A stretch of DNA of 64,000 nucleotides from an uncultured Bdellovibrionales bacterium (GCA_964497185.1 CAZCBX010000006.1:49904-113903); one strand, 5' to 3'. Counted from the stretch's first letter, positions 1 to 28,110 are shown. Translations and numbers: made by a program. The notes: generated from the letters alone by a model not told the origin.

Positions 1-624
1 CCGCAGGGTATTGAAAAACTTAGAACGCTGTCGTCGAGACGGGGTTAAGGCAGTTAACGCTGGGTTATTGCAAACGCGGCGATCCAAAAAGGCTTGCACG
101 TCGTCTACAGGCTCTGCCACAAACCCAAACAGATCTTCTTCCGGATGTTGTAACTGCTGATCTGGAAAAAGCTGTGCATATCGCGCATCGCTAACTTGAA
201 TGGGCACTGGCGACTGCGTCTCTCGGTTGTATTGGGGGACAAACTGCCCTTCAATGCCGGATTGCGGTTCTGGCTCCTGACCCAAAAATTTCTCGATAAA
301 AGAGGCATCCCCCATTCGCTCTTGTTGATCCTCAACTCTTTCTTGCAACTCAGCCAGCTGGCTGGACTGTGTTTGTTTTTGGTCAATGCAAGACACCAGA
401 CGATCGCCCAAAAATTGCTCTGCGCTGGTTAGATTGCTTTTGATGCCCTCATAGGAATGAAGAAAATCGTCATCTTGATACGTCCGCAGCTCTTTAATCC
501 ATGCGCTCTCTTGTTTTTTGGCTTTGGGGCGCTGTTTTTCATAGATTTCTTTGCCAGTGTAGCCCAGCGTTAAACCAATGCCCAAGCACACAAACGCTAA
601 TATGGTGGTCATCATATGCTTCAT
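1..624 (-). CDS. Hypothetical protein with N-terminal membrane anchor, truncated at the window edge
   Basis: Hand-translated open frame from ATG at 624 (MKHMMTTILAFVCLGIGLTLGYTGKEIYEK...) with no stop before position 1. Absent from the ORF track because it has no stop. Confidence 0.7.
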   Translation of the reverse strand, partial: MKHMMTTILAFVCLGIGLTLGYTGKEIYEKQRPKAKKQESAWIKELRTYQDDDFLHSYEGIKSNLTSAEQFLGDRLVSCIDQKQTQSSQLAELQERVEDQQERMGDASFIEKFLGQEPEPQSGIEGQFVPQYNRETQSPVPIQVSDARYAQLFPDQQLQHPEEDLFGFVAEPVDDVQAFLDRRVCNNPALTALTPSRRQRSKFFNTLR

Positions 625-721
625 GGATCACCATCTTATCAGAATCCCTCTGAAAAAGAATAAAAGTTAAGTGTCGACAAATCAATTCGATTTGATATAT
701 ACGGCACCTTGTTTGATATGT

Positions 722-806
722 GCCGACGTGGCGGAACTGGCAGACGCGCTTGGTTTAGGCCCAAGTGGGGTAACCCGTGGGGGTTCGACTCCCTCCGTCG
801 GTACCA
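722..806 (+). tRNA. tRNA-Leu (anticodon TAG)
   Basis: GCCGACG/CGTCGGT acceptor stem, CTTGG-TT-TAG-GC-CCAAG anticodon arm, long variable arm, GGTTCGACTCC T-arm, encoded CCA. Confidence 0.97.
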
Positions 807-1230
807 AACATCCTTTTTTTTGTTCCTGCTTAATTTTTTGATTCCTTGCTCTATGTGGCTCCTGACGAGAGTCGAACTTTGTTCGAGCTTTTGTTGGGTC
901 GCCTGCGGCTCCATGGCTCCGTCGGTACCAAACATCTTTTTTTTGTTCCTGCTTAGTTTTTTGATTCCTTGCTCTATGAGGCTCCTCGCGGGAGTCGAAC
1001 TTTGTTCGAGCTTTTGTTGGGTTTAGCAAATCTTAGGACGTCAGGCCTTAGATTTGCTTATGTCATGATTTGGTTTGAGCTTGCTCAAAGCATAATCTGA
1101 CCTCCTGCGGCTCCATGGCTCCGTCAATACCAAACATTCTTTTTTTTGTTTTTGCTTATGTCATGATTTGGTTTGAGCTTGCTCAAAGCATAATCTGACC
1201 TCCTTCGACTCCATGGCTCCGTCGGTGCCA
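807..1230 (+). repeat. tRNA-Leu-linked tandem repeat, three units (124, 202 and 98 nt), each ending in a copy of the tRNA 3' end
   Basis: ATGG+CTCCGTCGGTACCA-like copies end at 930, 1132 and 1230, each followed by AACAT and a T-tract. Units 1 and 2 are nearly identical apart from an insertion. Confidence 0.9.
1023..1101 (+). mobile_element. Two-hairpin mini-element, 79 nt (TTAG...GAC); partial second copy at 1154-1199
   Basis: Present in repeat unit 2 (GGGT|TTAG...GAC|CTcctgcgg) and absent from unit 1 (GGGT|CGcctgcgg). Same architecture at 7454, 13661 and 13690. Confidence 0.75.
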
Positions 1231-1386
1231 AACATTTTTTTTATTCCAGGGGCTTACCATTTTGGTTACTGGAATAAGTGAATCGAGGTATTTTTTGGGT
1301 TTGTAGGGCCGCAATCGGTCTTTTTGGGCTTGTAAATGGGCGCTAGGGGTGGACGTTTGGTTGGGTTTAGGGTAGAAGGCTTCGCT

Positions 1387-2649
1387 ATGAAAGTACAAGT
1401 AGATCACGTCAGCGACGTTAAGAAGAAAATTGTTGTCACCATTGATGAAGATCAGGTGCAGAGCCAAATGGATGAGGCTTATGTGGATCTTCAAAAAAAT
1501 GCGCAAATTCCTGGTTTTCGCAAAGGCAAAACGCCCAAATCACTTTTAGAGAAGAAGTATGGCCCTTCAGTTGAAGCTGAAGTTTTTCAAAACTTAATGC
1601 GCGCCACCATGAGCGAAGCTTTGGAAGAAAATGACTTAGACGCTATTTCCATTTCGGATGTAAGCCCGCCTGAAAGAAAAAAAGGCGAAGGTTTAACTTA
1701 CTCTGCATCACTAGAAGTTCGCCCCAACTTTGAACCCAAAGATTACAAAGGCATTTCTGTCAAACAGAACAAAGAAGACGTGAAAGACGAAGCCATTCAA
1801 GAAGTATTGGATCGCATTTTGGACAACCATGCCGTGATGAAACCCTTGGATGCAAAAAGCCCCAAAAAAGGCCAATATGCTTCCATTTTGGTTGAACATC
1901 TGGATGACCAAGGCAATGTGACCGAGACGCCCAAAGCTGAAGAACAGCTTCACATGGTTGGACACGAATCAGCCCGCAAAGATGTCGATCAAGCCATTCA
2001 AAAAATGTCTGTGGGCGATACCCAAGATTTAACCTTGGAGAATGTGCCTGGCCAAAAAGACGATCAAAAAACGTTTGTTCGGTTGACTTTAAAAAGCGTG
2101 AAAGAAAAACAATTGCCTGAACTTAACGATGACTTTGCCAAAACAGTGGGTCCTTTTGAAAATCTTGATGCGCTTAAAAAACAAATCAAAGAAGATCTTT
2201 CCTCTGAATTGGAAGATCGCAAAAAAGTAGATCATGCCACGCAAATTTTGGATCATTTGCGCAAAAAAAATAAAGTGGCCCTGCCCGACACCATGTTGGA
2301 GCAAGAAATGCAAAACATGCGACAAGAATTTTTCAACCGTGTGGTACAAAGCGGCCAAAGCCTGCCGGAAGATTTTTCTGCAGACAAGATGAACGAAGAA
2401 ATGAAACCCGAGGCTGAAAGGCGCGTGCATGAGCAGCTTCTGCTAACGGCCATTGCCAAAAAAGAAAACATTGAAGTCACGCCCCAAGAAATTCACGCAA
2501 AATTGCATGAGCTTTCACACATGTACAACAAGCCTGAAGGAGAGCTTCGTGCGGAGCTTGAAAAATCCGGACGAATGGACTTCTTGCATTATCAGCTTCT
2601 ATCGCAGAAAACGCTTGATTTCCTTGTTGGCGAAGCTAACATGAAGTGA
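1387..2649 (+). CDS. tig: Trigger factor
   Basis: Ribosome-binding signature IPGFRKGK; upstream of clpP-clpX. Start taken at MKVQVD (1387). Confidence 0.95.
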
Positions 2650-2695
2650 ATCTGGGCTTGACCCTATTGTCAGCACCATCATTAGAAAGGGTTTT

Positions 2696-3304
2696 ATGTC
2701 TTCATTGATTCCAATGGTCGTAGAACAAACGCATCGTGGCGAACGTTCATACGACATTTATAGCCGACTTTTAAAAGAACGAATTATTTTTTTGAGCACC
2801 CCTGTCAACGATGAAGTAGCCAATCTCATTGTGGCACAATTGTTGTTTTTAGAATCCGACAATCCTGACAAAGACATTCAATTGTACATCAATTCTCCAG
2901 GTGGCTCGGTCTATTCGGGTATGGCCATATACGATACCATTCAGCATATTAAACCTGAAGTCTCTACTTTTTGCATGGGCATGGCGGCGTCCATGGCGGC
3001 GGTGCTTTTGGCCGCAGGCCAAAAAGGCAAAAGATTTGCTCTGCCCCACTCTCGCGTGATGATTCACCAGCCTTTGGGGGGCTTTCAAGGCCAAGCCACA
3101 GACATTGATATTCAGGCCAAAGAAATTTTAAAAATCAGAGACGAACTCAACCAAGTTCTTCAGCGACATACCGGACAAAGTTTGGATAAAATTCAAGAGG
3201 ATACAGACCGCGACTATTATATGACCTCCGCAGAAGCCAAAGAGTATGGTATTATAGATCACGTAGTTGAAAAACGATCTGACATTGCGAGTGTAACTTC
3301 ATGA
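2696..3304 (+). CDS. clpP: ATP-dependent Clp protease proteolytic subunit
   Basis: [26 protein letters not shown] (catalytic Ser), MIHQP. Confidence 0.99.
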
Positions 3305-4566
3305 CCGAACAAAACAACGACCAAAACCAACTTCATTGTTCATTTTGTGGCAAAGGACAGCGAGAAGTCAAAAAGCTGATTGCTGGCCCCACGGTGTACA
3401 TTTGTGATGAGTGCATTGAACTTTGCAACGACATCATTGAAGAAGAAGGCCAAAACGAAGAAGCTGTAGGAACAGCGCCTTCGGCCATTCCAAAGCCCAA
3501 AGACATCAAAGCCATATTGGACGAATATGTCATTGGCCAAGAAGATGCCAAAAAAGTCCTTTCGGTTGCTGTTTATAATCACTACAAGCGCATTGACAGT
3601 CCTGTGGTTTCCAGCAGCGACATTGAGCTGCAAAAATCCAACATTTTGATGCTGGGCCCCACCGGTAGCGGTAAAACGTTGTTGGCTCAAACCCTTGCCC
3701 GCATTTTAAACGTGCCTTTTACCATCATTGATGCCACCACCTTAACCGAAGCCGGTTATGTGGGGGAAGATGTTGAAAACATCATTGTTACGCTTTTACA
3801 AAATGCAGATTACGATGTTGAACGCGCGCAGCGTGGCATTGCCTACATTGATGAAATCGACAAAATCGCACGCAAAGCCGATAACCCTTCGATTACCCGT
3901 GATGTATCGGGAGAAGGCGTGCAACAAGCACTGCTGAAAGTCATTGAGGGCACGGTTGCCAATGTACCGCCCAAAGGGGGACGCAAACACCCGCAACAAG
4001 AGTTTTTGCAAGTAGACACGAGCAACATGCTGTTTATTTGTGGTGGCGCGTTTGTCGGCTTGGACAAAGTCATTGAAAGACGCATCACGCAAACCAGCAT
4101 TGGTTTTGGTGCTGAGCTAAAATCCAGCAAACCCAAAGGCACGGGCGAACTCTTTCAAGAAGTAAAAAATGAAGATTTAACCAATTATGGTTTGATTCCT
4201 GAATTTATTGGTCGTGTGCCTGTGGTGGCATCGCTCAATGATTTGGACGAAAACGCACTGATTGATATTTTAACTCAGCCCAAAAACGCCTTAATCAAAC
4301 AATATCAAAAACTCTTTGATATGGAGAACGTCAAACTCACATTCACCCCGACGGCCATCTCCGCCATTGCGACCAAAACCATGGACCGCAAAGCCGGCGC
4401 ACGTGGTTTACGCTCTATTTTAGAAGAAATCATGCTGGATATTATGTATGAAATTCCTTCTCAAGAGCACGTGGAAGAGTGCGTCATTTCAGAAGACGTT
4501 GTATTAAAGGGCGATAAGCCTCTGGTTGTGTATCAACAGCCCAAAAAAGAAGCTGAAAGCGCTTAA
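3301..4566 (+). CDS. clpX: Clp protease ATP-binding subunit ClpX
   Basis: CSFCGK...CDEC zinc finger, GPTGSGKT Walker [18 protein letters not shown] loop. Confidence 0.99.
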
Positions 4567-4672
4567 GTCCAAATAAGTCGAAGCAAAGTTTTTTGAGTCT
4601 TGCTTTTTTTTGGTGTGTGCCTACATTGGTAGATATAGGAACTGATATCTGCCAAACAAGGACAAGACCTCA

Positions 4673-7123
4673 ATGACTGAAGACAAAAAACCACTTTCCA
4701 GCAATTTACCAGCCACAGTGACGCGGGTGCCATTACTGCCACTTCGCGATATTATCGTATTTCCACACATGGTGGTGCCATTGTATGTTGGCCGTGAAAA
4801 ATCGGTCAAAGCACTCGAATATGCCATGAAAAATGGCAAAGACCTTTTGCTGTCTGCACAGAAAAAAGCCAAAACCAATGACCCCCAAGAAGAAGATATT
4901 TATACGGTGGGTACATTGGGCAAGATTAAACATCTTTTGCGCTTGCCGGACTCCACCGTAAAAGTTCTGGTGGAAGGGAAAAAGCGAGTTAAAATCAAAC
5001 AATTTATTGAACACCAAGATTTCTTCTTTTGCGAAATCAAAGATTTGGTGGAGCCTGAAACCAAAGACGTAGAGCTTGAGGCAATGGTTCGACAAGTTCA
5101 AAAAAGTTTTGAAGCTTATGTAAAGCTCAATAAAAACATTCCCCCTGAAATGATTATGTCGGTTTCCAACATGGATGAGCCATCGCGTGTGATTGACACC
5201 ATTGCTGCGCACCTCACGTTGAAACTCAAAGACAAACAAGAGGTGCTTGAAATACCGGACGCGCATTCGCGCTTGGAAAAGCTGTATGCTCTGATGCAAT
5301 CTGAAATAGAAATTTTGCAGATTGAAAAACGCATTCGTTCGCGTGTTAAAAAGCAAATGGAGAAAACGCAAAAAGAGTATTATCTCAACGAGCAAATGGC
5401 GGCCATTCAGAAAGAGCTGGGTGAAAAAGAAGACGGTAAATCTGAAATCAATGAGATTGAAGACAATCTTAAAGAGAAAAAACTGCCTGTTGAAGCCAAA
5501 GAGCGCATTGAAAAAGAACTCAAAAAATTAAAAATGATGTCGCCCATGTCGGCGGAAGCCACGGTTGTGCGCAACTACATCGACAACATGATGGAACTGC
5601 CCTGGCTCGAATACAGCGAAGACAAACTCGACATTCCAGAAGCCGAAAAAGTGCTCGAACGTGATCACTATGGATTGGATAAAGCCAAGAAACGAATTTT
5701 GGAATACCTATCGGTTCAAAAACTGGTTAAAGGCATCAAGGGACCCATTCTTTGCTTGGTTGGGCCTCCGGGTGTGGGTAAAACCTCTTTGGCCCGTTCA
5801 ATTGCTGATTCAACGGGGCGTAAATTTGCCAAAATGTCCGTGGGGGGCATGCGGGACGAGGCTGAAATTCGCGGCCACCGACGCACCTACATTGGCGCCA
5901 TGCCTGGTAAAATTATTCAGGCCATTAAAAAAGCGGGCAAGTCCAATCCTGTTTTCTTGATTGATGAAATTGATAAAATGGCGATGGACTTCCGTGGGGA
6001 TCCCTCTGCGGCCATGCTTGAAGTATTGGATCCACAACAAAACCATAGTTTTGGCGATCACTACTTGGATGTAGATTACGACTTGTCCAAAATTATGTTT
6101 GTGGCCACGGCCAATTCCGTCAGCGGCATACCGCGCCCATTGCTGGATCGAATGGAAGTCATTCATCTGTCTGGGTATACCGAAGAGGAAAAACTTCAAA
6201 TTACCAACAAATATCTGATTCCCAATCAGGTCAAAGAAAATGGTTTAACCCCAGACAACATTACGTTCACCGATGCTGGCGTATTGGAAGTCATTCAAAG
6301 ATACACCCGCGAAGCGGGGGTTCGAAATCTTGAAAGAGAAATTTCCTCCATCTGTCGTAAGATTGCCAAAAAAGTAGTCGAGGAAGGAAGTGAGCACCAT
6401 TCAGAAATTACACCTGAACAAGTGCATGATTTGCTCGGCGTACCCAAATTTAAATACGGCATGGCTGAAAAAGAGAGCCAAATAGGCCTAACCAACGGGC
6501 TTGCCTGGACTGAAATGGGTGGAGACTTGTTGCAAATTGAAGTTTCTGTACTACCAGGCAAAGGCAAACTTAAACTTACGGGTAAACTGGGCGATGTGAT
6601 GCAAGAATCGGCACAAGCAGCCATGACCTACATTCGCTCGCGCTCGAAAGCCTTTGGTTTGCGCGATCATTTTTATGAAAAAATTGATTTTCACGTTCAT
6701 GCACCCGAAGGGGCCATTCCAAAAGATGGTCCATCGGCGGGCATCACCATTGCCACTTCGTTGGCCAGTGCCATCATGGGAATTCCCGTGCGCAGAGATG
6801 TTGCCATGACTGGCGAAATCACATTGCGTGGCAAAGTGTTGCCGATTGGCGGACTCAAAGAAAAAGTATTGGCGGCCCATCGTGGCGGCGTGACCGATAT
6901 CATCATTTCGGTGGATAATGAAAAGGACTTAAAAGATATTCCTGAAAACATTCGTGAGGAAATGACCTTTCACACCGTGGAAAACGCCGATGAGGTACTG
7001 AAAATCGCACTGGATTTGCAACCAGGCCAAAGCCTACTGGACAAAGAAGGCGATTTTGCCCTTGAAATCTTTGAAGCCGGTGCGGATGTACCCGGTGTCA
7101 AAGATGAAAAAGCCATGCATTAG
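4673..7123 (+). CDS. lon: Lon protease (endopeptidase La)
   Basis: LPLRD N-domain, GPPGVGKTS Walker A, PKDGPSAG catalytic Ser, IGGLKEK. Confidence 0.99.
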
Positions 7124-7190
7124 CCCTTTTGTAAAAAAAGGTTGACCCTACCCAGAGGGTATGAAATAAGACCCTCTATTGTCAAAGGAT

Positions 7191-7266
7191 GGGCGATTAG
7201 CTCAGCTGGCAGAGCGCCACATTTACACTGTGGATGTCGGCGGTTCGATCCCGTCATCGCCCACCA
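7191..7266 (+). tRNA. tRNA-Val (anticodon TAC)
   Basis: GGGCGAT/ATCGCCC acceptor stem, CCACA-TT-TAC-AC-TGTGG anticodon arm, GGTTCGATCC, CCA; 76 nt. Confidence 0.97.
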
Positions 7267-7580
7267 TCTCCTTATTCCTTGCTTGATTTGAAAGTTTCTT
7301 TGTACCCGCAACTACCAGCAGATCGAACCAAGGTTCTCTGTTGATTGGACTCGCCCTTCGGCGAGTATGGCGTCATCGCCCTCCATCTCTTTATTCCTTG
7401 CTTGATTTGAAAGTTTCTTTGTACCCGCAACTACCAGCGGATCGGCTAGGGTTTTAGTGGTTCTTATGACGTAGGAATTAGAACCACTTATGCCACATTT
7501 GGGCTTGAGCTGGCTCAAAGCAAATGTGGCCTCTGTTGATTTTATCAGCCCTTCGGCGGATATGGCGTCCTCGCTCTTCA
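7267..7580 (+). repeat. tRNA-Val-linked tandem repeat, two units (119 and 195 nt)
   Basis: ATGG+CGTCATCGCCCTCCA ends at 7385 and a degenerate ATGG+CGTCCTCGCTCTTCA ends at 7580. The first roughly 50 nt of both units are nearly identical. Confidence 0.9.
7454..7530 (+). mobile_element. Two-hairpin mini-element, 77 nt (TTAG...GGC)
   Basis: Filled site GGTT|TTAG...GGC|CTCTGTTGATT in unit 2 versus empty site GGTT|CTCTGTTGATT in unit 1 (7332-7346). Confidence 0.8.
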
Positions 7581-7704
7581 TTTTGAGGGGGTTTTACCTA
7601 ATTTTTTAGAATCCATTGAGTGCGTATGGTAAAATAGTAGAGATATTCAGTATTTATCCTAAATATTTGAAAATCGTTGGTTGTATTTACTCATGGGTTG
7701 TTGC

Positions 7705-10458
7705 ATGTTGTATCGAGGTTGTATTTTTGTTGTGTGGCTTTGCTGTTGCTTTTTATGGCAGTGCAATGCAGGCACCCCTACGTCTAAACTTGTTTTTAAG
7801 CCTTCTCCACAAAACCCAGCCAGCACTTTTACTCTCATTCAACCTTCATCTACCCATGCCAAAGATGAACGCATCCTTCTTCGCATTGAAAATTTGTCTC
7901 CCGAGAACAAAGCCACTTTGCATGATGATCCTGCTTGTCAAAACGCACTGCCTCATTTAGCCGATGCGTCGTCTCGTGCCCATGCTGTCGATTTTTCCAT
8001 CGACTTAGAGCAAGACGGTGTTTACACCTACTATGCGCAAGTTGGTTCACCTGAAAGTAATCATCCGCTTTGTTTGGGACCGGTAAGCTATCGTTTGGAC
8101 CGCATTGCGCCCGTCATCACCGATGTCTCGGATGGGTCTGGGTCTTACATTGCGTTATCTACCAGCGAGTCCGATAATCCAGTGTATGTGTATGATGATG
8201 ACGCCTGCACAAATGAAGTGGGCGAGCTATTACCCGATGGCAATGGCAACGACATTGTGTTTGCACCAGGCCTGACGGAAAATGGCGTGTTTTTATATTG
8301 GGTGCAAACGCAGGACAATGCCGGCAACTTATCCGATTGTGTGGGTCCGCTTTTTTATATGTATTTGGGTGCTTCGCCCAACTCCATGATTTCGATGCCC
8401 AATCAATTGGCCATCAACACGGGCACCCTCGAATACAATGTTGATTTTGGTGATGTATTTTCGGCTTCAATGGCTGCCAGCGATGTCACCGTGCAAACCA
8501 CCGGTGACGTGCAATACAGTGTGCAAGTGTTAAACGGCACAACCAAAACACCCACCATTGTGTTAACGGTCACTGGCGGCAATGGCACCATCAACAGCGT
8601 GAGCATTCCAGAGGGCTTGGGTGACAACCTTGTGGCAGGCACACCGGCCGCCACTCAAAATACCGTGGTTCGTGTGGACAACATTGCACCCAACGTCACT
8701 TTGTCTTTGTCACCATCCACACCTTCCCCGGGTGATTTTAATCCCATTTTGTTTGATATAACGGCAACCACGCCCACTGATTTGGCCTCGGTCGCCCTGT
8801 TTAAAAATGACCCCACTTGTTCGAGTCCTGCAGCCAATACTGGTGGCCACCCTGCACAAACGTCACTGAGTCTTGCATCCGACACCATTGAAACCGGTAC
8901 AGGCACTTATCTATACTATCTGCAAGCCATCGATGCGGCAGGCAATGCATCCGGATGCGTCGGCCCGGTCAGCTATCAGCTCAGTGCGCCAGATCCGGTG
9001 AGCAATCTCAACATTTCTGCCAAAGGTTGTGATTACTTATCCATTGGTTGGACCAAGCCCAACGAAAACGGCACCACCATTGTCAATTATCAAACCCGTT
9101 ACAAACCTTCGGCGCTCCTGGATGAAAGCAATTTTGTTTTATTTGACCCAGGCATCTCTACACAAACCTTTGAAACCATTGGACCCGCTGCGCCCCACAC
9201 GCTAACCGTTGATACCGTCTACGATTTTCAAATGCGAACCGTCACCAGCAACGGGGCCATATCGCCTTGGTCCAATACCTATACAGGCGCAACCTTGCCC
9301 AACACCCTATTTTTCTGTGGGAATGACAATTACGGCGCATTTAACACAGGGGGTGCCACCACCAGCAAAATGGTTGCATTTGATGACGGAACCACCGTAG
9401 AGCATTACAATCAAAGCAATTTATTGATTAATACCTACACGCTTGACGCGGGTGAAACACAAGGCATCAACAGCACGCAGTTCGATTATGTTTTATCGGA
9501 CAAACCATTGTACATTGCGGGTCGAAGAGGCAGTGGGGGCAATACACGCAAAGCAAACGTGGTTTGGAGTTCCAAAGACTGGGCGGGCAAACAGTTTTTA
9601 TTCAATGGATCGCGCGCGCCCAATCACATTTTAAGCGTTTACGCATTTGAAGATGCCACCATTGATGTCATCAATGCCAGTGGGGTTGTGGTTACGCAGA
9701 CCATCAATGCTGGCCAAAGCACCACGTTTAGTGTGGGCAATGGCAGTTATGAGGTCGACAGTACAGGCACGTTGGTTGCCTATCTGTTTTCGAGCAGTGG
9801 CAATCCCATGGGCAACAACCTGCAAGACCCAATGCCTTTACTGCCACTGTCCACCGATATCATTGGTTACACCGGCAGCATCAGCGGTGCCCAAATTTCT
9901 TCTTTAAGCAATGGCAATGTCGTCAACGCAAGGCATTCCAACGATGTGCTTGATACCCGAACTGTCAACATCGGCAACCCCCAATCCATTTCAGCCCGAG
10001 GTAACGGCAACGTGACACTTTACCAATCAGAGGCTGTGCATGTGACCTCTTCAGCCCCCATCGTTGCCCGTAGTAATGCGGACAGCAATGGCAACTGTTC
10101 GGCGCCTTTTCTTCCAGTTACCATGATGCGCAAGCGATACGCCATCAATGTCTATGCTGAGTGGGTGGCCTTTGCCGCATTGGAAAGTGGCGATATTGAA
10201 GTGGTGGATCCACAAACAGGTTCCGTGGTGGCCACCATCACCCTGGTCCAAAATGATCCAACTCCACCTACAGCCTCCACCACCCCTTGGAAAGCACGAA
10301 TCGATCGCTCCACGCTGTTAAACTTGGTCAGTAGCAACTCAACGACTGAAGGGGTTATCTTTCGATCGACCATTGCCTTTGCGGCTTGGTATGAACCTCA
10401 AAATGACAACTTCGCAGCTGACGACGATGAAACATTGCTTTATGGTACCAATGATTAA
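7705..10458 (+). CDS. Large secreted/surface protein with repeated Ig-like modules, a fibronectin type III domain and a beta-rich C-terminal region
   Basis: Hydrophobic Cys-ending N-terminus; three modules ending G.Y.Y..Q..D.AGN...C.GP..Y; FN3-like PDPVSNL...IGWTKP..NGTTIVNYQTRY. Start chosen at ATG 7705 (the ORF track starts at TTG 7681). Confidence 0.75.
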   Translation: MLYRGCIFVVWLCCCFLWQCNAGTPTSKLVFKPSPQNPASTFTLIQPSSTHAKDERILLRIENLSPENKATLHDDPACQNALPHLADASSRAHAVDFSIDLEQDGVYTYYAQVGSPESNHPLCLGPVSYRLDRIAPVITDVSDGSGSYIALSTSESDNPVYVYDDDACTNEVGELLPDGNGNDIVFAPGLTENGVFLYWVQTQDNAGNLSDCVGPLFYMYLGASPNSMISMPNQLAINTGTLEYNVDFGDVFSASMAASDVTVQTTGDVQYSVQVLNGTTKTPTIVLTVTGGNGTINSVSIPEGLGDNLVAGTPAATQNTVVRVDNIAPNVTLSLSPSTPSPGDFNPILFDITATTPTDLASVALFKNDPTCSSPAANTGGHPAQTSLSLASDTIETGTGTYLYYLQAIDAAGNASGCVGPVSYQLSAPDPVSNLNISAKGCDYLSIGWTKPNENGTTIVNYQTRYKPSALLDESNFVLFDPGISTQTFETIGPAAPHTLTVDTVYDFQMRTVTSNGAISPWSNTYTGATLPNTLFFCGNDNYGAFNTGGATTSKMVAFDDGTTVEHYNQSNLLINTYTLDAGETQGINSTQFDYVLSDKPLYIAGRRGSGGNTRKANVVWSSKDWAGKQFLFNGSRAPNHILSVYAFEDATIDVINASGVVVTQTINAGQSTTFSVGNGSYEVDSTGTLVAYLFSSSGNPMGNNLQDPMPLLPLSTDIIGYTGSISGAQISSLSNGNVVNARHSNDVLDTRTVNIGNPQSISARGNGNVTLYQSEAVHVTSSAPIVARSNADSNGNCSAPFLPVTMMRKRYAINVYAEWVAFAALESGDIEVVDPQTGSVVATITLVQNDPTPPTASTTPWKARIDRSTLLNLVSSNSTTEGVIFRSTIAFAAWYEPQNDNFAADDDETLLYGTND

Positions 10459-11327
10459 TGATTTTGTTTAAACTGCTGAATGCTTTCTGCCACTTGCGCG
10501 CCAAATAAAACAACAATGGAATTGTAGTACATCCACAATAATAAAATGACTAGATTTCCTGCCGTTCCATACAGCGATGCCCATTTGCTCTGCGTTAGAT
10601 AGCTTAACAAAACATTCTTACCCACGGAAAAAAGAAACGAAGAAACCAATGCGCCTATGATCAGATTTCTTTTTTTCATCTCACGCGCACCCAATAACTT
10701 ATAAAGTACAAAGAAAAGTCCAGCATTGATGCCGTAAGACAGCAGGAAGCTAATCATTTGATTCATCCATTCTGCTGCCAGCAGTGCTTCGGCTTGTTCT
10801 TCAATCATAAAGTGAAAAATCAAATCAATTAAAATGGCCACCAATACGATAAACCCAATCACAAACACCATAATAAAAGACACCAGCACATCCCATATCT
10901 TTTGCCTCTTTTGAAGATTGTCTTCCATAAAGGTAAAAATATCGCGAAAAGCCGTTTGCAAGGCTGAAAAAATGGCGTTGGAAGCCCATAAAAGCAACAA
11001 AATACCTGTAATGCTCGCCACCAGTCCTGATTCTGAGCGGCGCGCACTGGATGCGGATTCTTTCAGTACTTTCACCAGGTCTTCATTGAGGTATTGCCCA
11101 ATAAAATTAAACAGGGAATCACTGGCCAGGTGCATATCCACCACCAAGCTGGCAATGAAAATAGAAATGAGCAATACGGGCGGCACCGAAAAAATCGTAT
11201 AAAATGAAACAGCTGCTGCATGATGAACAATACGGTTATCAAAAATACCTTTGCCCATGTCCATCAACAAATTTTTGGTTGCTTTGAGCATGCTACACCA
11301 GCTTATATCAGTCTTTACGATATGCAA
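10455..11327 (-). CDS. YihY/virulence factor BrkB family membrane protein
   Basis: AAAVSFYTIFS.PP and SLYGTAGNLVILLLWMYYNS.VVLFGA motifs; multiple TM segments. True start may be 11291. Confidence 0.9.
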   Translation of the reverse strand: MHIVKTDISWCSMLKATKNLLMDMGKGIFDNRIVHHAAAVSFYTIFSVPPVLLISIFIASLVVDMHLASDSLFNFIGQYLNEDLVKVLKESASSARRSESGLVASITGILLLLWASNAIFSALQTAFRDIFTFMEDNLQKRQKIWDVLVSFIMVFVIGFIVLVAILIDLIFHFMIEEQAEALLAAEWMNQMISFLLSYGINAGLFFVLYKLLGAREMKKRNLIIGALVSSFLFSVGKNVLLSYLTQSKWASLYGTAGNLVILLLWMYYNSIVVLFGAQVAESIQQFKQNH

Positions 11328-11335
11328 AATCGTAC

Positions 11336-12733
11336 TTAGGATAGTTCTTGTACACTAGTTTCAAAGCGGGCTTGAATGTAGGGCTTAACAATTGGACTGG
11401 TTTTGATTTTCGCCCCCAGGGTATAGAGCAAATTGTACAAACCAATTTCAGCTCGCATAATGTAAGTCAACTCGGGCCAAAGGATTTTTGCCTTTGCAGA
11501 CGCTTGAAAAAGCCGCTTAAATTCGTTTAAAATCATACCATCTGAAAAATCGACCACTTGATCTACTTGGGTATCCCAACGAGGATAAATTTGGGCGTAC
11601 AATCTTGAAAAACCTCGATGAACTTCTAGCTGAGCTTCTGTGAGCTCATTAACTGAAAATTTCCGATGAACCTTTTCCACCATGGCTTTGTACTGACGCT
11701 GATCCTGATCCAAATCCAGCGTTAAAGATGAAACAAAAGCGTCAATCATGTCGCTGGGCACGGCTTTGACGCATCCAAAATCAACCAAGCCAATTGATCC
11801 ATCTGGATCAAAAAGATAATTGCCCAAATGTGGATCGGCGTGCAAATAGCCAATGCGATGGATTTGATGGTGATACATGTTCATTAATTGACGGGCCAAT
11901 CGATTGCGAAAAGCTTGAGATTTTTCTTTTTCCAATATTTTTTCTAAACTCATACCGGGCACAACACTCATGGTCAGCACCTTAGCGTTTGAAAATTCTG
12001 GATGGACTTTGGGCAATGCAACGCCTTCAAAATTTTCAAAACCCTTGGCAAAAATGGAAATATTCTTTGCTTCGTGCAGGTAATCTGTCTCCTCTAGTAA
12101 CCCGCGCTTAAGTTCATCGAATGCAGCTTGATGGTAATGTTTGGTCCACATCATCGGTTTGAAGGTGGTGCGAATCACTTGCAAATCATGCTCGATGGTT
12201 TTGGCAATGTTGGGGTATTGCAACTTCACCACCACTGGGGTGCCATCCTTAAGTTTTGCATGGTGTACCTGCCCCATGGAAGCTGAGGCAAACGCTTGAG
12301 CATCAAATTCGCCAAACACTTTCTCTGGCATGACACCAAATACTTTTTTAAACTGCAACCTGGCCATGGTCGGATTCATGCTGGGGGCATGCATTTGTAA
12401 CGTGCTTAGCTCCGTCAAAGCTTGCTCAGGCAGCCATTGGCCCTGCATACTCATCATCTGGCCCAGTTTCATCCAAGGCCCTTTTAAGCCTTTAAGAGCC
12501 TGTGTGGCTTTAACAGCCTGGTCACTCACCTTTTGGTCTGCCAGTTTCGCTGCTTGGTCTTGCTCTAAAAACGCCTTTTGAATTTGATACCCAATGTAAC
12601 TATTGGAAATACCCAATCCCACTTTGGCCATGGTCCACGCGCGTTTGATTTGCCCTTGTGTAAAATCAAAGTCTTCTTCCTCCGTACTTGCGGCATCAGA
12701 ATCATGCTGATCATCCGCGCTTACCATGTCCAT
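11336..12733 (-). CDS. ABC1/AarF/UbiB family atypical kinase
   Basis: [38 protein letters not shown]. Likely start MDMVS overlaps the TetR stop. Confidence 0.93.
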
Positions 12734-13368
12734 GGGCTTTTGTTTAAAAAAGCAAACCCCATGGTTAGCGAACGATCCAACATGGCCATGGTTTTTTGCT
12801 TGTCTTCGGAAGTATCTTTGAGCCAGTAATACAAAATACCATAATAGTAGGTTGCAAACATGTAAGCACCCCAATCACCCAGGGGAGGAATTTCTCCATT
12901 TTCATGGGCTTTCACGAACAATTCTTTGATAAATTGAAGGTACCGACTGGTGTGAACTTGGGTGTCTAATTTAAGCGGATTGAGTTTGGATCGAGGATCC
13001 AACGCTTTGATAAATGCCGCATGAATAAAATCTTCGTAGGGTGACAGCTGTTCAAGTTGCATATGAATCAGACCAAAAAGTTTTTCGTTGAGTGGGGCTT
13101 TTTGCAACGTTTTATCTTTTTGATACTGCGACATAACTTGCTCAATTTCTTTTTCATAGAAATACAGCGCCAAGTCTTCTTTGGTGGCAAAATAATTGTA
13201 AATGGTGCCTTCAGCCACGCCAGCTTGAGCGGCCAGTTCTTTTGTGGTGGTTTGCGCAAAGCCCTTTTTTTGAAACAACGTCAGCGCAGCTTGCAAAATT
13301 TTGTCTTTCACAACTTGCTTTTTGGTTTCTCGAACCCGAGAAGCGGACTTTTTCTTTGTTTTTGGCAT
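12721..13368 (-). CDS. TetR/AcrR family transcriptional regulator
   Basis: [43 protein letters not shown] helix-turn-helix. Confidence 0.93.
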
Positions 13369-13445
13369 GAGTATACTCATTATTATCAGATCCCCTTGCG
13401 GGTGTAAATCTGCGACTTTCTTGAAAAAAGGCGTAAAAAACCTGT

Positions 13446-13473
13446 TTGACTCCCCTTCGGAATGTGGTAGAAC
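13446..13473 (+). promoter_or_regulatory. Putative sigma70-type promoter of tRNA-Asp
   Basis: TTGACT-16 nt-TAGAAC with an upstream TG, ending 16 nt before the tRNA. Confidence 0.45.
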
Positions 13474-13489
13474 CAACTTTCAAAATTTA

Positions 13490-13566
13490 GGGGTCGTAGT
13501 TCAGTTGGTTAGAACGCCTGCCTGTCACGCAGGAGGTCGCGGGTTCGAGTCCCGTCGGCCCCGCCA
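13490..13566 (+). tRNA. tRNA-Asp (anticodon GTC)
   Basis: GGGGTCG/CGGCCCC acceptor stem, CCTGC-CT-GTC-AC-GCAGG anticodon arm, GGTTCGAGTCC, GCCA. Confidence 0.98.
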
Positions 13567-13660
13567 CTGTCTTCTTTTGGAGATGGTTGCTTCTCTTTAT
13601 CTTTATTCTATATTATTGCACGTGCTGGGGACTCGAACAGAGTTCGTCTATTTACTGGGT

Positions 13661-13806
13661 TTAGTGGTTCTTGTGACGTTAGGAACTAGGCCAGTTTCGC
13701 GCACACTCCTTGAGCACGAAACTTGGCATAAGCCGCGTTACTAAAGCAACGGCTAAAACCACTTATGTCATAATTTTTTTTCAGCTATGCTGAAGGGAAA
13801 TTTGAC
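13661..13806 (+). mobile_element. Two-hairpin mini-element (79 nt once the nested copy is removed)
   Basis: GGGT|TTAGTGGTTCT..GACGTTAGG..AG[nested]AACCACTTATGTCA...TGAC|CT; hairpin 1 is nearly the same as in the Val copy. Confidence 0.75.
13690..13756 (-). mobile_element. Nested inverted mini-element copy, 67 nt
   Basis: Reverse complement reads GGTT|TTAGCCG...CGGCTTATGCCAAGTTTCG...CGAAACTGGC|CT. Removing it restores the host stem arm AGAACCAC. Confidence 0.75.
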
Positions 13807-13922
13807 CTCCTTACGGCTCCATGGCGTCGGCTTTTTCTTTTTTTACTTTAGGTTTAGCATGTGAAATTTTGTTTTTTTCCAAGCAGGTGGGGACATGTGC
13901 CTTTCGTACAGGGCCCGCGGTT

Positions 13923-14915
13923 TTAGGATTGGATGGATTGGAGGAGTTTTAGGAGGGCTTTTTCTTCTTTGTTGGTGAAGTTGTCCTGATCGATTTCTTT
14001 GAGGACTTCTTCAATGTAGTTTTGAAGCGTGACACCCGCCTCGTATTGTTGAACCACACGGGGGTCGATGTAGTTGGCTTTGGCCACGGCTTCGGTGTTG
14101 CCCAAGTGCTGTGCAACTTGATTGATGGCTTCTTTGATTTTTGTTTTTTGTTCTTTTTGGCTTTCCACCACGCCCATTTCATTTAATAACGTTGCTGCCA
14201 AAAAAGTACCGGCCCAGGTTCGAAAGTCTTTAGCGGAGTACTCCTCACCCATGACTTCATGAATGTACCGATTAAGATCGTCAGACTTTACATCTACTTT
14301 TTGTCCTTCTGAATCAAAGTATTTGAAAATTTCATAGCCGGGCACTTCATCAATTTCTCTGACGATTTCTGCCAGTCTTCGGTCTTTGATCTTTTTGGTG
14401 TGGGTCTTTCCTGATTTGCCCTTATAGCTAAAAGTAAGTTTATGGCCCTGCACATCCAAATGCTTAGACCTTAGTGTGGTTAGCCCGTAGGTTTGATTCT
14501 GGCTGGTATAGTAATCGCTGCCTGGTCGAAAGTAAGCATTTTCCATCAAGCGCACCATGCACGCCATAACTTTATCACGATTGAGATTGGGTTGCGCCAA
14601 ATGCTGGCCGGTCACTTGTCGCATATGAGAAAGGCGAGAAGCAAAGTCGATGATTCGCGCAAACTTTTTCTTTTCCTGTTTTTCGCGCCATTTGGGGTTG
14701 TATATGTACTGCTTGCGCCCTTTGACATCCCGTCCCCAAGCAAAAACTTTTGCCCGCGGCTGCTGTGCAAAAATATGAACATCCGTCCACGCTGGCGGAA
14801 TGGCCAAACTTTGAATCCACGACTTGAGTTTTTTGGACACAATGGTTTTACGGGTTTGCGCATCCAGGTACCGAAAGCCCTGTCCCCACTTTTTTCGCTC
14901 GATGGTTTGGCCCAT
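13923..14915 (-). CDS. DNA topoisomerase IB (bacterial, poxvirus-like)
   Basis: IPPAWTDV, GRDVKGRKQYIY, FRPGS, YGLTTL, FSYKGKSG, SAKDFRTW, LGNTEAVAKANYIDP (catalytic Tyr). Confidence 0.95.
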   Translation of the reverse strand: MGQTIERKKWGQGFRYLDAQTRKTIVSKKLKSWIQSLAIPPAWTDVHIFAQQPRAKVFAWGRDVKGRKQYIYNPKWREKQEKKKFARIIDFASRLSHMRQVTGQHLAQPNLNRDKVMACMVRLMENAYFRPGSDYYTSQNQTYGLTTLRSKHLDVQGHKLTFSYKGKSGKTHTKKIKDRRLAEIVREIDEVPGYEIFKYFDSEGQKVDVKSDDLNRYIHEVMGEEYSAKDFRTWAGTFLAATLLNEMGVVESQKEQKTKIKEAINQVAQHLGNTEAVAKANYIDPRVVQQYEAGVTLQNYIEEVLKEIDQDNFTNKEEKALLKLLQSIQS

Positions 14916-27841: not shown

Positions 27842-27981
27842 AAAGCTTTTTTATTCAAACTTAACCTAACACTTTGGCTCAAACCCTTACGCTCAAAGCA
27901 ACATAAAAAATAATACTGGCATGCTTTCCCGGCACCTCTAACATACTTTATGACTGGCTTTTAAAAACCGATGGGTGGCCC

Positions 27982-28054
27982 GGTAGCGTTAGGCCCTTTC
28001 AGGCAAATAAAGCGCAGCGGAGCGAGCCATTGCCTGAAAGGGCCTAACGCTACC
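27982..28054. repeat. Perfect 25-bp-arm palindrome, same loop family as 15003-15081
   Basis: GGTAGCGTTAGGCCCTTTCAGGCAA-ATAAAGCGCAGCGGAGCGAGCCA-TTGCCTGAAAGGGCCTAACGCTACC. Confidence 0.92.
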
Positions 28055-28110
28055 TAAAGTACTCCCATCTGCACAACAGAACCGCGAGCAAACAAACCAG
28101 ATAAGCACTC

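Follow-up and report, generated by a model that had tools for sequence, protein, structure and literature searches.

Repeat units carrying antisense copies of the host T-arm follow tRNA genes in an uncultured Bdellovibrionales bacterium: a variant of the RtT-type tRNA-linked repeat

The DNA analyzed here (the window) is a stretch of 64,000 nucleotides (nt), positions 49904-113903 of contig C6, from an uncultured Bdellovibrionales bacterium whose genome, designated G000, comprises 2.14 Mb in 30 contigs and is 96.8% complete. Three transfer RNA (tRNA) genes lie in the window, tRNA-Leu(tag), tRNA-Val(tac), and tRNA-Asp(gtc), all recognized by ARAGORN and by the Rfam tRNA model. The trailers of these genes hold repeat units in which an antisense copy of the gene's own T-arm is followed by a partial sense copy of its 3' end, the latter starting at a fixed point of the T-arm, the junction J. 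The features of the three loci are the following:

722..806, + strand: tRNA-Leu(tag), found by ARAGORN and by the Rfam tRNA model at 50.8 bits; T-arm GGGGGTTCGACTCCCTCC, 3' part CTCCGTCGGTACCA
807..868, + strand: first Leu spacer, a T-rich stretch of 62 nt without conservation among tRNAs; ~20 nt from its start reappear after later 3'-end copies
869..916, + strand: core of Leu unit 1, type I (see below), with antisense T-loop GAGTCGAAC (869-877), loop ttt, sense GTTCGAGC (881-888), T-rich linker, weak hairpin GTCGCCTGCGGCTCC, and ATGG (913-916)
917..930, + strand: sense copy of the Leu 3' part, from position 63 to CCA (CTCCGTCGGTACCA)
931..1131, + strand: Leu unit 2, with spacer copy, antisense GGGAGTCGAAC (990-1000), ttt, GTTCGAGC, and linker
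~1021-1100, + strand: two-hairpin module of Leu unit 2 (TTTAG..CTTATG..ATCTGAC), then CTCCTGCGGCTCCATGG (1101-1117) and a decayed 3'-end copy CTCCGTCAATACCA (1118-1131)
1132..1230, + strand: partial Leu unit 3, with spacer start, second half of the module, TTCGACTCC-ATGG-CTCCGTCGGTGCCA, and a T-run
7191..7266, + strand: tRNA-Val(tac) (ARAGORN, Rfam); T-arm GGCGGTTCGATCCCGTC
7267..7385, + strand: Val unit 1, with spacer (7267-7320), antisense GATCGAACC (7321-7329), loop aag, sense GGTTCTCTG, linker, hairpin CTCGCC-cttc-GGCGAG (7350-7365), TATGG (7366-7370), and 3'-end copy CGTCATCGCCCTCCA (7371-7385)
7386..7580, + strand: Val unit 2, older, with spacer copy (58/62 aligned), decayed antisense GGATCGGCT, two-hairpin module from ~7453, ATATGG, and decayed 3'-end copy CGTCCTCGCTCTTCA (7566-7580)
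13490..13566, + strand: tRNA-Asp(gtc) (ARAGORN, Rfam); T-arm GCGGGTTCGAGTCCCGTC
13567..13831, + strand: Asp unit, with spacer (13567-13627), antisense GGGACTCGAAC (13628-13638), loop aga, sense GTTCGTCT (13642-13649), and linker; at its end CTTACGGCTCCATGG (ATGG at 13821-13824), a truncated 3'-end copy CGTCGGC (13825-13831), and a T-run
~13660-13809, + strand: two-hairpin module of the Asp unit, with a second module nested in reverse

In the partial Leu unit 3, TTCGACTCC-ATGG-CTCCGTCGGTGCCA is the gene's own T-loop and 3' end with ATGG, placed at TCC^C, as the sole insertion. At the Val locus, one DNA contig of run X2, at depth 8, passes directly from 7271 to 7391 and thus has one 119-nt unit fewer; because 48 letters fit either side, this joint is compatible both with assembly collapse and with a real variant.

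A reading made earlier from the bases alone (the sequence-only reading) had placed an antisense copy of the cognate T-arm about 55-65 nt after the CCA of each tRNA. The four motifs lie exactly at the positions it gave, 869-877, 990-1000, 7321-7329, and 13628-13638, and start at 62, 60, 54, and 61 nt (Leu, Leu, Val, Asp), the second Leu distance being measured from the CCA of the repeated 3' end. Each motif matches, in reverse complement, the T-loop and the 3' T-stem strand of the tRNA that it follows. The short GTTC(G) said to follow each motif was recovered: GTTCG or GTTC follows 3 nt later in all four cases and, by alignment and folding, forms a small hairpin with the motif. The motif also abuts or spans the junction that breaks the second, partial tRNA copy, as had been proposed; at all three window loci this junction is TCC^C, between positions 62 and 63.

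To follow the antisense copy beyond the window, we compared G000, which has 33 tRNA genes by ARAGORN, with related genomes. G002, G004, and G005 belong to the same family as G000, with G002 and G004 in one genus, and G003 is a further related carrier; the completeness of these four carriers, G002-G005, is 88-92%. For each tRNA, the best antisense local match of the tRNA 3' part in its own trailer was scored, and the sum was compared with 5000 permutations of tRNAs over trailers. The summed match was 241 in G000 against 193.8 +/- 6.4 when permuted (0/5000), 177 against 154.8 in G005 (0/5000), 200 against 180.8 in G002 (13/5000), and 187 against 169.5 in G004 (32/5000). Two further genomes had been intended as controls. 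G006, from the same order, gave a weak signal (350/5000), and G020, from another phylum, gave a signal (17/5000) that stems from a family of such units in its own genome; neither is therefore a clean negative control.

The claim that the variable T-loop bases track the host tRNA was examined by selecting trailers on the hairpin signature alone, blind to the tRNA, and comparing the four bases before GAAC with the tRNA. In all 25 trailers these bases were the reverse complement of positions 57-60 of the tRNA's own T-loop, including 13/13 tRNAs with a loop other than GAAT, over 8 loop classes, while permutation among the same 25 trailers gave a mean of 7.3 matches and a maximum of 16 (10,000 permutations). 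With six of six from G003 the total rises to 31/31 trailers in five related genomes. Since orthologous tRNAs are not independent, the tracking signal is carried by about 9-10 tRNA species. The orthologous tRNA-His genes illustrate the rule, their loops CAAAT, CGATT, and CAATT being paired with antisense copies GGATTTGAAC, GAATCGAACC, and GGGAATTGAAC, and Arg-tcg behaves alike. The single lagging mismatch is at Arg-acg of G005, where the tRNA reads ..AATCAC.. and the antisense copy implies ..AATCGC... The motif is thus neither a fixed sequence nor a match at chance frequency, and the antisense T-loop copy is confirmed genome-wide.

All units share one order of parts: antisense arm, loop of 1-4 nt, sense T-arm up to J, core, and a tRNA copy from J to the 3' end, which at several loci extends into about 50-65 nt of trailer. 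A trailer of about 55-60 nt precedes the antisense arm, with spacer lengths mostly of 52-67 nt. The antisense arm is 9-21 nt long, is the reverse complement of the host T-arm, and often crosses J; it therefore copies an uninterrupted T-arm. It overlaps the downstream 3'-end copy by 0-7 nt. With the sense arm directly beside it, it makes up a near-palindrome, such as AACCTCC-t-GGAGGTT at Pro-ggg or, at Arg-tct of G002, CGAACCTAC-c-GTAGGTT.

Three kinds of core were distinguished. Type I, found at all three window loci and defined from an alignment of 27 units plus folds, has J at TCC^C (62/63) and a core of ~30 nt made of a T-rich linker, a GC hairpin, and CATGG. Its sense arm, GTTCG-TCT, represents positions 53-62 without 58-59 and becomes GTTCA-TCT where the loop is TTCAAAT. 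Type II has J at GGTT^C (55/56) and, as core, a two-hairpin module of ~85 nt that we call M; it occurs at Cys, Pro-ggg, His, and Arg-tct. The third, RtT-like core lies behind tRNA-Gln. Antisense arm and 3'-end copy overlap by 0-1 nt in the majority of type I units, by 5-7 nt only at Ser-gga, Arg-acg, the transfer-messenger RNA (tmRNA) gene, and His of G004, and by 2-6 nt in type II. There is a hint that the distance from the junction to the antisense arm is constant at ~72-74 nt in both types, a figure that for type II comes from five cases only and depends on a movable reference point.

The spacers are T-rich and G-poor (T 39%, G 15%), and the first hairpin is weak, with a mean of -4.9 kcal/mol against -2.6 for shuffled sequences. 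Two candidate features of the trailers did not hold up. TTCGA-like sequences in the spacers gave 15 matches in 36 carriers and 19 in 76 non-carriers, an unconvincing enrichment, and a hairpin plus NTGG ahead of the antisense arm, mirroring the CATGG end, was seen only at Ser-gga, Asp, and Phe.

Units are widespread in G000 and patchy among its relatives. Scoring a tRNA as a carrier at an antisense score of at least 9, occupancy is 14/31 scored tRNAs in G000, 11/23 in G005, 6/30 in G002, and 4/28 in G004. Outside the scored G000 set, tRNA-Ser(gga) bears four tandem 130-nt units spanning a contig join, and the tmRNA gene bears one unit; by eye, 18 of the 34 tRNA and tmRNA genes of G000 have units. 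The type I signature was present in 5/6 family genomes and in 1/11 other genomes of the phylum set, and a stricter signature pattern in 4/41 genomes. Among G000, G005, G002, and G004, His is the only tRNA occupied in all four, and G002 and G004 differ at five tRNAs although they share a genus.

Units occur up to four per gene, and where they are tandem the oldest stands furthest from the gene. The arrays at Leu-tag, Val, Glu, Phe, Ser-gga, and His display this gradient, the gene-proximal units being simple and the distal ones carrying extra modules or decay. Comparison of G002 and G004 at tRNA-Arg(tct) supplied one usable filled and empty pair. Behind the G002 gene come 53 nt of spacer and then the insert; 21 nt of tRNA 3' end and a repeat of the spacer (53-54 nt) lead on to a conserved gene end. 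In G004 only 11 nt separate the tRNA from the same gene end, a near-empty site. The spacer likewise reappears past the last 3'-end copy at Ala-ggc (51 nt) and Phe (67 nt) of G002, Arg-cct of G004 (63 nt), Met of G005 (64 nt), and Leu-tag of G000 (~20-44 nt). Where it does so, the direct repeat extends ~65-80 nt from J.

No true copy of module M is more than 500 nt away from a tRNA or tmRNA gene. M occurs in either orientation, always at a sequence resembling GTT^CGAATCC: in type II it occupies the sense T-loop copy, and in type I units it stands reversed within the antisense arm, at the same T-loop position read on the opposite strand. Insertion is at the fixed short GTT^C, and a clear short target duplication is absent. 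Ten distinct reversed copies at nine G000 tRNA loci split the antisense hairpin. When both strands were folded, M's own top strand was the more stable in 9/10 reversed copies, with G.U pairs at 25/275 against 11/259; for forward M the tRNA-sense strand was the more stable in 4/4 and 8/11. The bias therefore follows M and not tRNA transcription, which suggests that M itself passes through a single-stranded stage. Hairpin A of M has the 13-mer GGAGCGAAGCGAC as its loop; read on the opposite strand, this 13-mer is the type I core in its weak-hairpin form.

Our best explanation, put forward tentatively and short of calling it probable, is that the units arise at the DNA level from small hairpin elements, non-autonomous and directed at the T-arm, and that the antisense copy derives from the target. 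Hairpin elements would strike the T-arm of a tRNA gene, and each insertion would bring a long target duplication from J onward; the tRNA gene would therefore stay whole. A fold-back copy of the target's left half would be made at insertion, and the antisense copy would always match its host because it is this left half that is copied. Folded as a single-stranded hairpin, the product may rebuild a duplex image of the T-arm at the junction, which module M could hit again on either strand, and new units would form beside the gene, displacing older ones downstream. A single-stranded DNA intermediate, the fold-back step, and an enzyme are the parts of this scheme that we infer. It accounts for the match of every antisense arm to its host, for arms that form near-palindromes, for direct repeats, for arrays in which older units lie further out, for occupancy that changes from genome to genome, and for the way M targets its site in either orientation and carries its own strand bias.

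A number of observations weigh against this explanation. Spacer-like sequence past the last 3'-end copy was absent in many loci, and for type I no clean filled and empty pair was obtained, as the trailers of G003 and G005 fail to align. G000 and G005 have the same hairpin and loop at Phe (gat), Pro-tgg (aga), and His (aac), whereas their spacers and linkers cannot be aligned, and the pairing of the GC hairpin is kept through double changes, TCACCC/GGGTGA vs GCACGC/GCGTGC at Phe and GCATGC vs GCAAGC/GCTTGC at Pro. Such a conserved hairpin with compensating changes looks like constraint on a resident structure. Type I cores have G.U pairs at 60/421 on the tRNA-sense strand and 13/366 on the other, as expected of an RNA, and in E. 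coli the comparable rtT is annotated as a processed small RNA, rttR.

The search for an enzyme adds to these points. None of the families considered, RVT_1, tyrosine recombinases, IS110, and Y1 HUH, contained a gene that tracks the units. RVT_1 reverse transcriptases had no match in G000. Its only two tyrosine recombinases (PF00589), on C10 and C12, are of Xer-like size (302 and 341 aa), and neither is beside a unit. The one IS110-type gene of G000 lies beside tRNA-Met on C16 and adjoins no unit, and the family was not found in the carriers G002-G005. The Y1 HUH family is present in 17/17 genomes of the phylum set, with or without units. In G000 it has four members, RAYT-like and 212-243 aa long:

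C7:112873-113196: Y1 HUH (RAYT-like) gene
C2:164950-165276: Y1 HUH (RAYT-like) gene
C18:15956-16288: Y1 HUH (RAYT-like) gene
C14:4264-4509: Y1 HUH (RAYT-like) gene

Each is bordered by its own palindromic repeats, which are unlike the unit hairpins. One of these flanking repeats (ggggacagacacct..aggtgtctgtcccc) also occurs at the end of the Leu-gag trailer. Neither was an autonomous relative of M found: a search of genome contigs gave two matches, one a relative and the other a chance match in a Terriglobia metagenome-assembled genome, with neither hairpin nor tRNA.

Several of the same observations would suit an RNA-level role, which we consider unlikely though the most serious of the alternatives. 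The trailer would be co-transcribed with the tRNA, and the antisense arm could switch between pairing with the T-arm and pairing with the local GTTCG. Alternatively, the unit could be released as a stable, RtT-like RNA, its 3' end generated by the enzymes that process tRNA, or the hairpin and a U-rich tail could aid termination. The excess of G.U pairs on the tRNA-sense strand, the hairpin and loop kept between genera with compensation in the GC hairpin, the layout of the annotated rttR, and the Rfam RtT model, in which the antisense piece pairs with the beginning of the 3'-end copy to close the RNA, all favor such a role. So do the T-rich, G-poor spacers, and a terminator consensus scan flagged the first hairpin and its T-rich tail at Leu and Asp, though not at Val. 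The weakness of that hairpin speaks against it, as does the T-run that directly follows CCA in many trailers and makes read-through uncertain. Most type I antisense arms are, moreover, unable to pair with their own 3'-end copy because the overlap is only 0-1 nt. The ten reversed M copies that split the hairpin, the repeats decaying away from the gene, the variable occupancy within one genus, and a strand bias of M independent of the direction of tRNA transcription also count against an RNA-level role. The sequence-only reading had left the choice between a guide or targeting segment of the repeat-forming mechanism and a precursor-RNA switch. Its tRNA specificity and junction contact stand, and the evidence leans to the repeat-forming side, modified in that the antisense copy would derive from the target; the switch half is weakened by the splitting of the hairpin by M and by units that are up to four-fold and variable within a genus.

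An improbable alternative is that the units are relics or minimal forms of integrative elements, with a tyrosine integrase crossing over in the T-arm, the repeats being attL/attR and the antisense hairpin an accessory site. Islands that integrate into tRNA genes produce a direct repeat from a fixed tRNA point past the 3' end, and here, too, the direct repeat begins at a fixed T-arm point and extends past the tRNA end. The junctions 55/56 and 62/63 lie 7 nt apart, and 7 nt is the size of a tyrosine-recombinase overlap region; the spacers, moreover, are AT-rich and of steady length. The units are, however, only 120-330 nt long and cargo-free, with a conserved 4-nt ATGG between the T-loop-like part and the 3'-end copy, and the two PF00589 genes described above do not adjoin them. 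A protein site, furthermore, need not follow variable tRNA bases, yet 31/31 antisense copies do.

A bolder reading of the units, which we hold to be similarly improbable, would make the antisense segment and the 3'-end copy, on a small scaffold, a self-specifying two-guide module that reads both strands of its own tRNA's T-arm, steers a putative nicking-joining enzyme there, and is retargeted by copying the target; RtT and the G000 units would then form one ancient class of guided mobile elements living on unbroken tRNA genes. More doubtful is passive matching, under which a generic anti-T-loop is kept identical to its host by short-patch gene conversion or template switching (quasi-palindrome correction), with neither function nor templating at insertion. 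Copies that follow the T-loop changes of orthologous tRNA-His and Arg-tcg, and the one lagging mismatch at Arg-acg of G005, would fit it; the 3'-end copies, the constant layout, and the template-less conserved loops are left unexplained, and the anchor for conversion would be just 7-8 conserved T-loop bases. Least likely is a guide for a nucleic-acid-guided recombinase or nuclease, in which antisense arm and 3'-end copy on a scaffold would read both T-arm strands by analogy with the IS110 bridge RNA: a segment complementary to the top strand left of J and one identical to it right of J do occur in order, meeting or overlapping at J, with a perfect host match (31/31), but IS110 was not found in G002-G005 at their 88-92% completeness, no second, donor-binding loop was seen, no guided nuclease emerged from a search confined to the Y1, IS110, reverse transcriptase, and integrase families, and a guide would not need the adjacent sense arm.

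Should the DNA-level explanation be true, mobile DNA would land on essential genes without harm; should the RNA-level one be true, a tRNA-linked RNA would be made by many bacteria. Annotation pipelines currently overlook such units in either case.

Other repeats were seen in and around these trailers. A long-hairpin family with variable complementary stems of 20-25 bp around a conserved loop core, aATGGCTCGCTTCGCTGCGCTTTATTTg, has one copy in the window (~27975-28055, core 28004-28028, minus strand) and 13 further copies in G000, 14 altogether; TCGCTTCGCT is common to it and the unit cores, and copies also occur in the Pro-tgg, Ala-ggc, and Met (C4) trailers. Another trailer family starts directly after CCA with motifs such as aatccttaagg, ccctaagcccc, and taaccctta. 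In G000 it follows tRNA-Asn on C5, tRNA-Met on C16, the tmRNA gene on C9, and, on C4, the Leu-caa units, and in the relatives it follows Asn in G004, Met in G005, and Asn and Ser-gct in G003; on C16 the trailer is succeeded by the sole IS110-type gene of G000. Many G003 trailers open with (g/a)(t/c)cttcg ... ggcaggcc, and the Arg-cct trailer of G003 is nearly identical to that of G004 despite their listing as different genera. The tRNA-Met trailer on C4 of G000 (67415 onward) contains an N stretch and then several repeated blocks of 170-460 nt.

Several known systems resemble the units in part. The bridge RNA of IS110/IS1111 elements has a target-binding loop that reads both strands around the crossover, and in the units, likewise, two short segments read opposite strands on either side of such a point. 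The IS110 recombinase, however, does not co-occur with the units, a donor loop is absent, and the right segment is a full tRNA 3'-end copy. M resembles the miniature elements of IS200/IS605 and the REP/RAYT system in its hairpins near the ends, its orientation-bound strand bias, and its fixed short site, and differs in that the Y1 genes of G000 are bordered by other hairpins and M occurs only behind tRNA and tmRNA genes. The IS200/IS605 and REP/RAYT families are, moreover, not known to make either a long target duplication or a fold-back copy. With the att sites of tRNA-integrating elements the units share a direct repeat from the T-arm past the 3' end and an intact gene; absence of cargo and of an adjacent integrase, a length of 120-330 nt, the inverted left-half copy, and the conserved ATGG set them apart from these and from CIME-like elements.

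The closest likeness is to the RtT repeats of E. coli, an operon oddity unexplained for decades. An excerpt of 10.1101/2024.07.17.603846 gives the mode of action of rttR as unknown, and an excerpt of PMC11623569 cites Bosl and Kersten. In the literature covered, which did not extend to Bosl and Kersten 1991 itself, neither the covariation rule nor any such unit beyond the E. coli operon turned up. The tyrT/tyrV rtT units of E. coli score 133-137 bits against the Rfam RtT model (RF00391; threshold 45 bits). An Rfam search at E <= 1 over window positions 600-14300 and 16 trailer loci of G000 returned only tRNA, tmRNA, and chance matches, and no G000 unit reached that limit against RF00391. The layout is nevertheless shared, since units in both genomes stand in tandem behind a tRNA gene and each ends in a copy of the tRNA 3' end (the last 19 nt in E. 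coli). In E. coli, CCA is followed by a 57-59-nt spacer, an antisense T-arm GGGGAAGGAT (the reverse complement of ATCCTTCCCC), a sense arm AAGGTTCGA, and a GC-rich core. The trailer of tRNA-Gln in G000 shares GGAAGGATGAGAA..AAGGTTCGA with the E. coli unit, and the 13-mer GGAGCGAAGCGAC of hairpin A in M recurs in one E. coli unit. In K-12 (1285500-1288000, minus strand) this 13-mer lies 4 nt ahead of the tyrT-tyrV 3'-end copy. GCGAAGC, within it, is a very stable DNA mini-hairpin.

The G000 cores differ from RtT in sequence, the junction is 62/63 or 55/56 instead of 57/58, and about half of the tRNA genes are occupied compared with one operon in E. coli. The closing stem of the Rfam model is absent in most type I units, whose antisense arm covers the left side of the junction and so cannot close the unit on its own 3'-end copy. 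We file the units as a variant form of the RtT-type tRNA-linked repeat. The layout of a single E. coli operon fills about half of the tRNA genes of one genome, and the anecdote becomes a class with testable rules, namely fixed T-arm junctions, a long target duplication, and a fold-back arm, that recurs with unrelated cores in other phyla. In G020, from another phylum, units behind tRNA-Gly(tcc), Ser(cga), and Glu(ttc) consist of CCA, ~10 nt, an antisense copy of the T-stem 5' strand plus GGTTC, a GC-rich core of ~95 nt, and a 3'-end copy from A58; with E. coli rtT they have the layout in common and a core that is unrelated.

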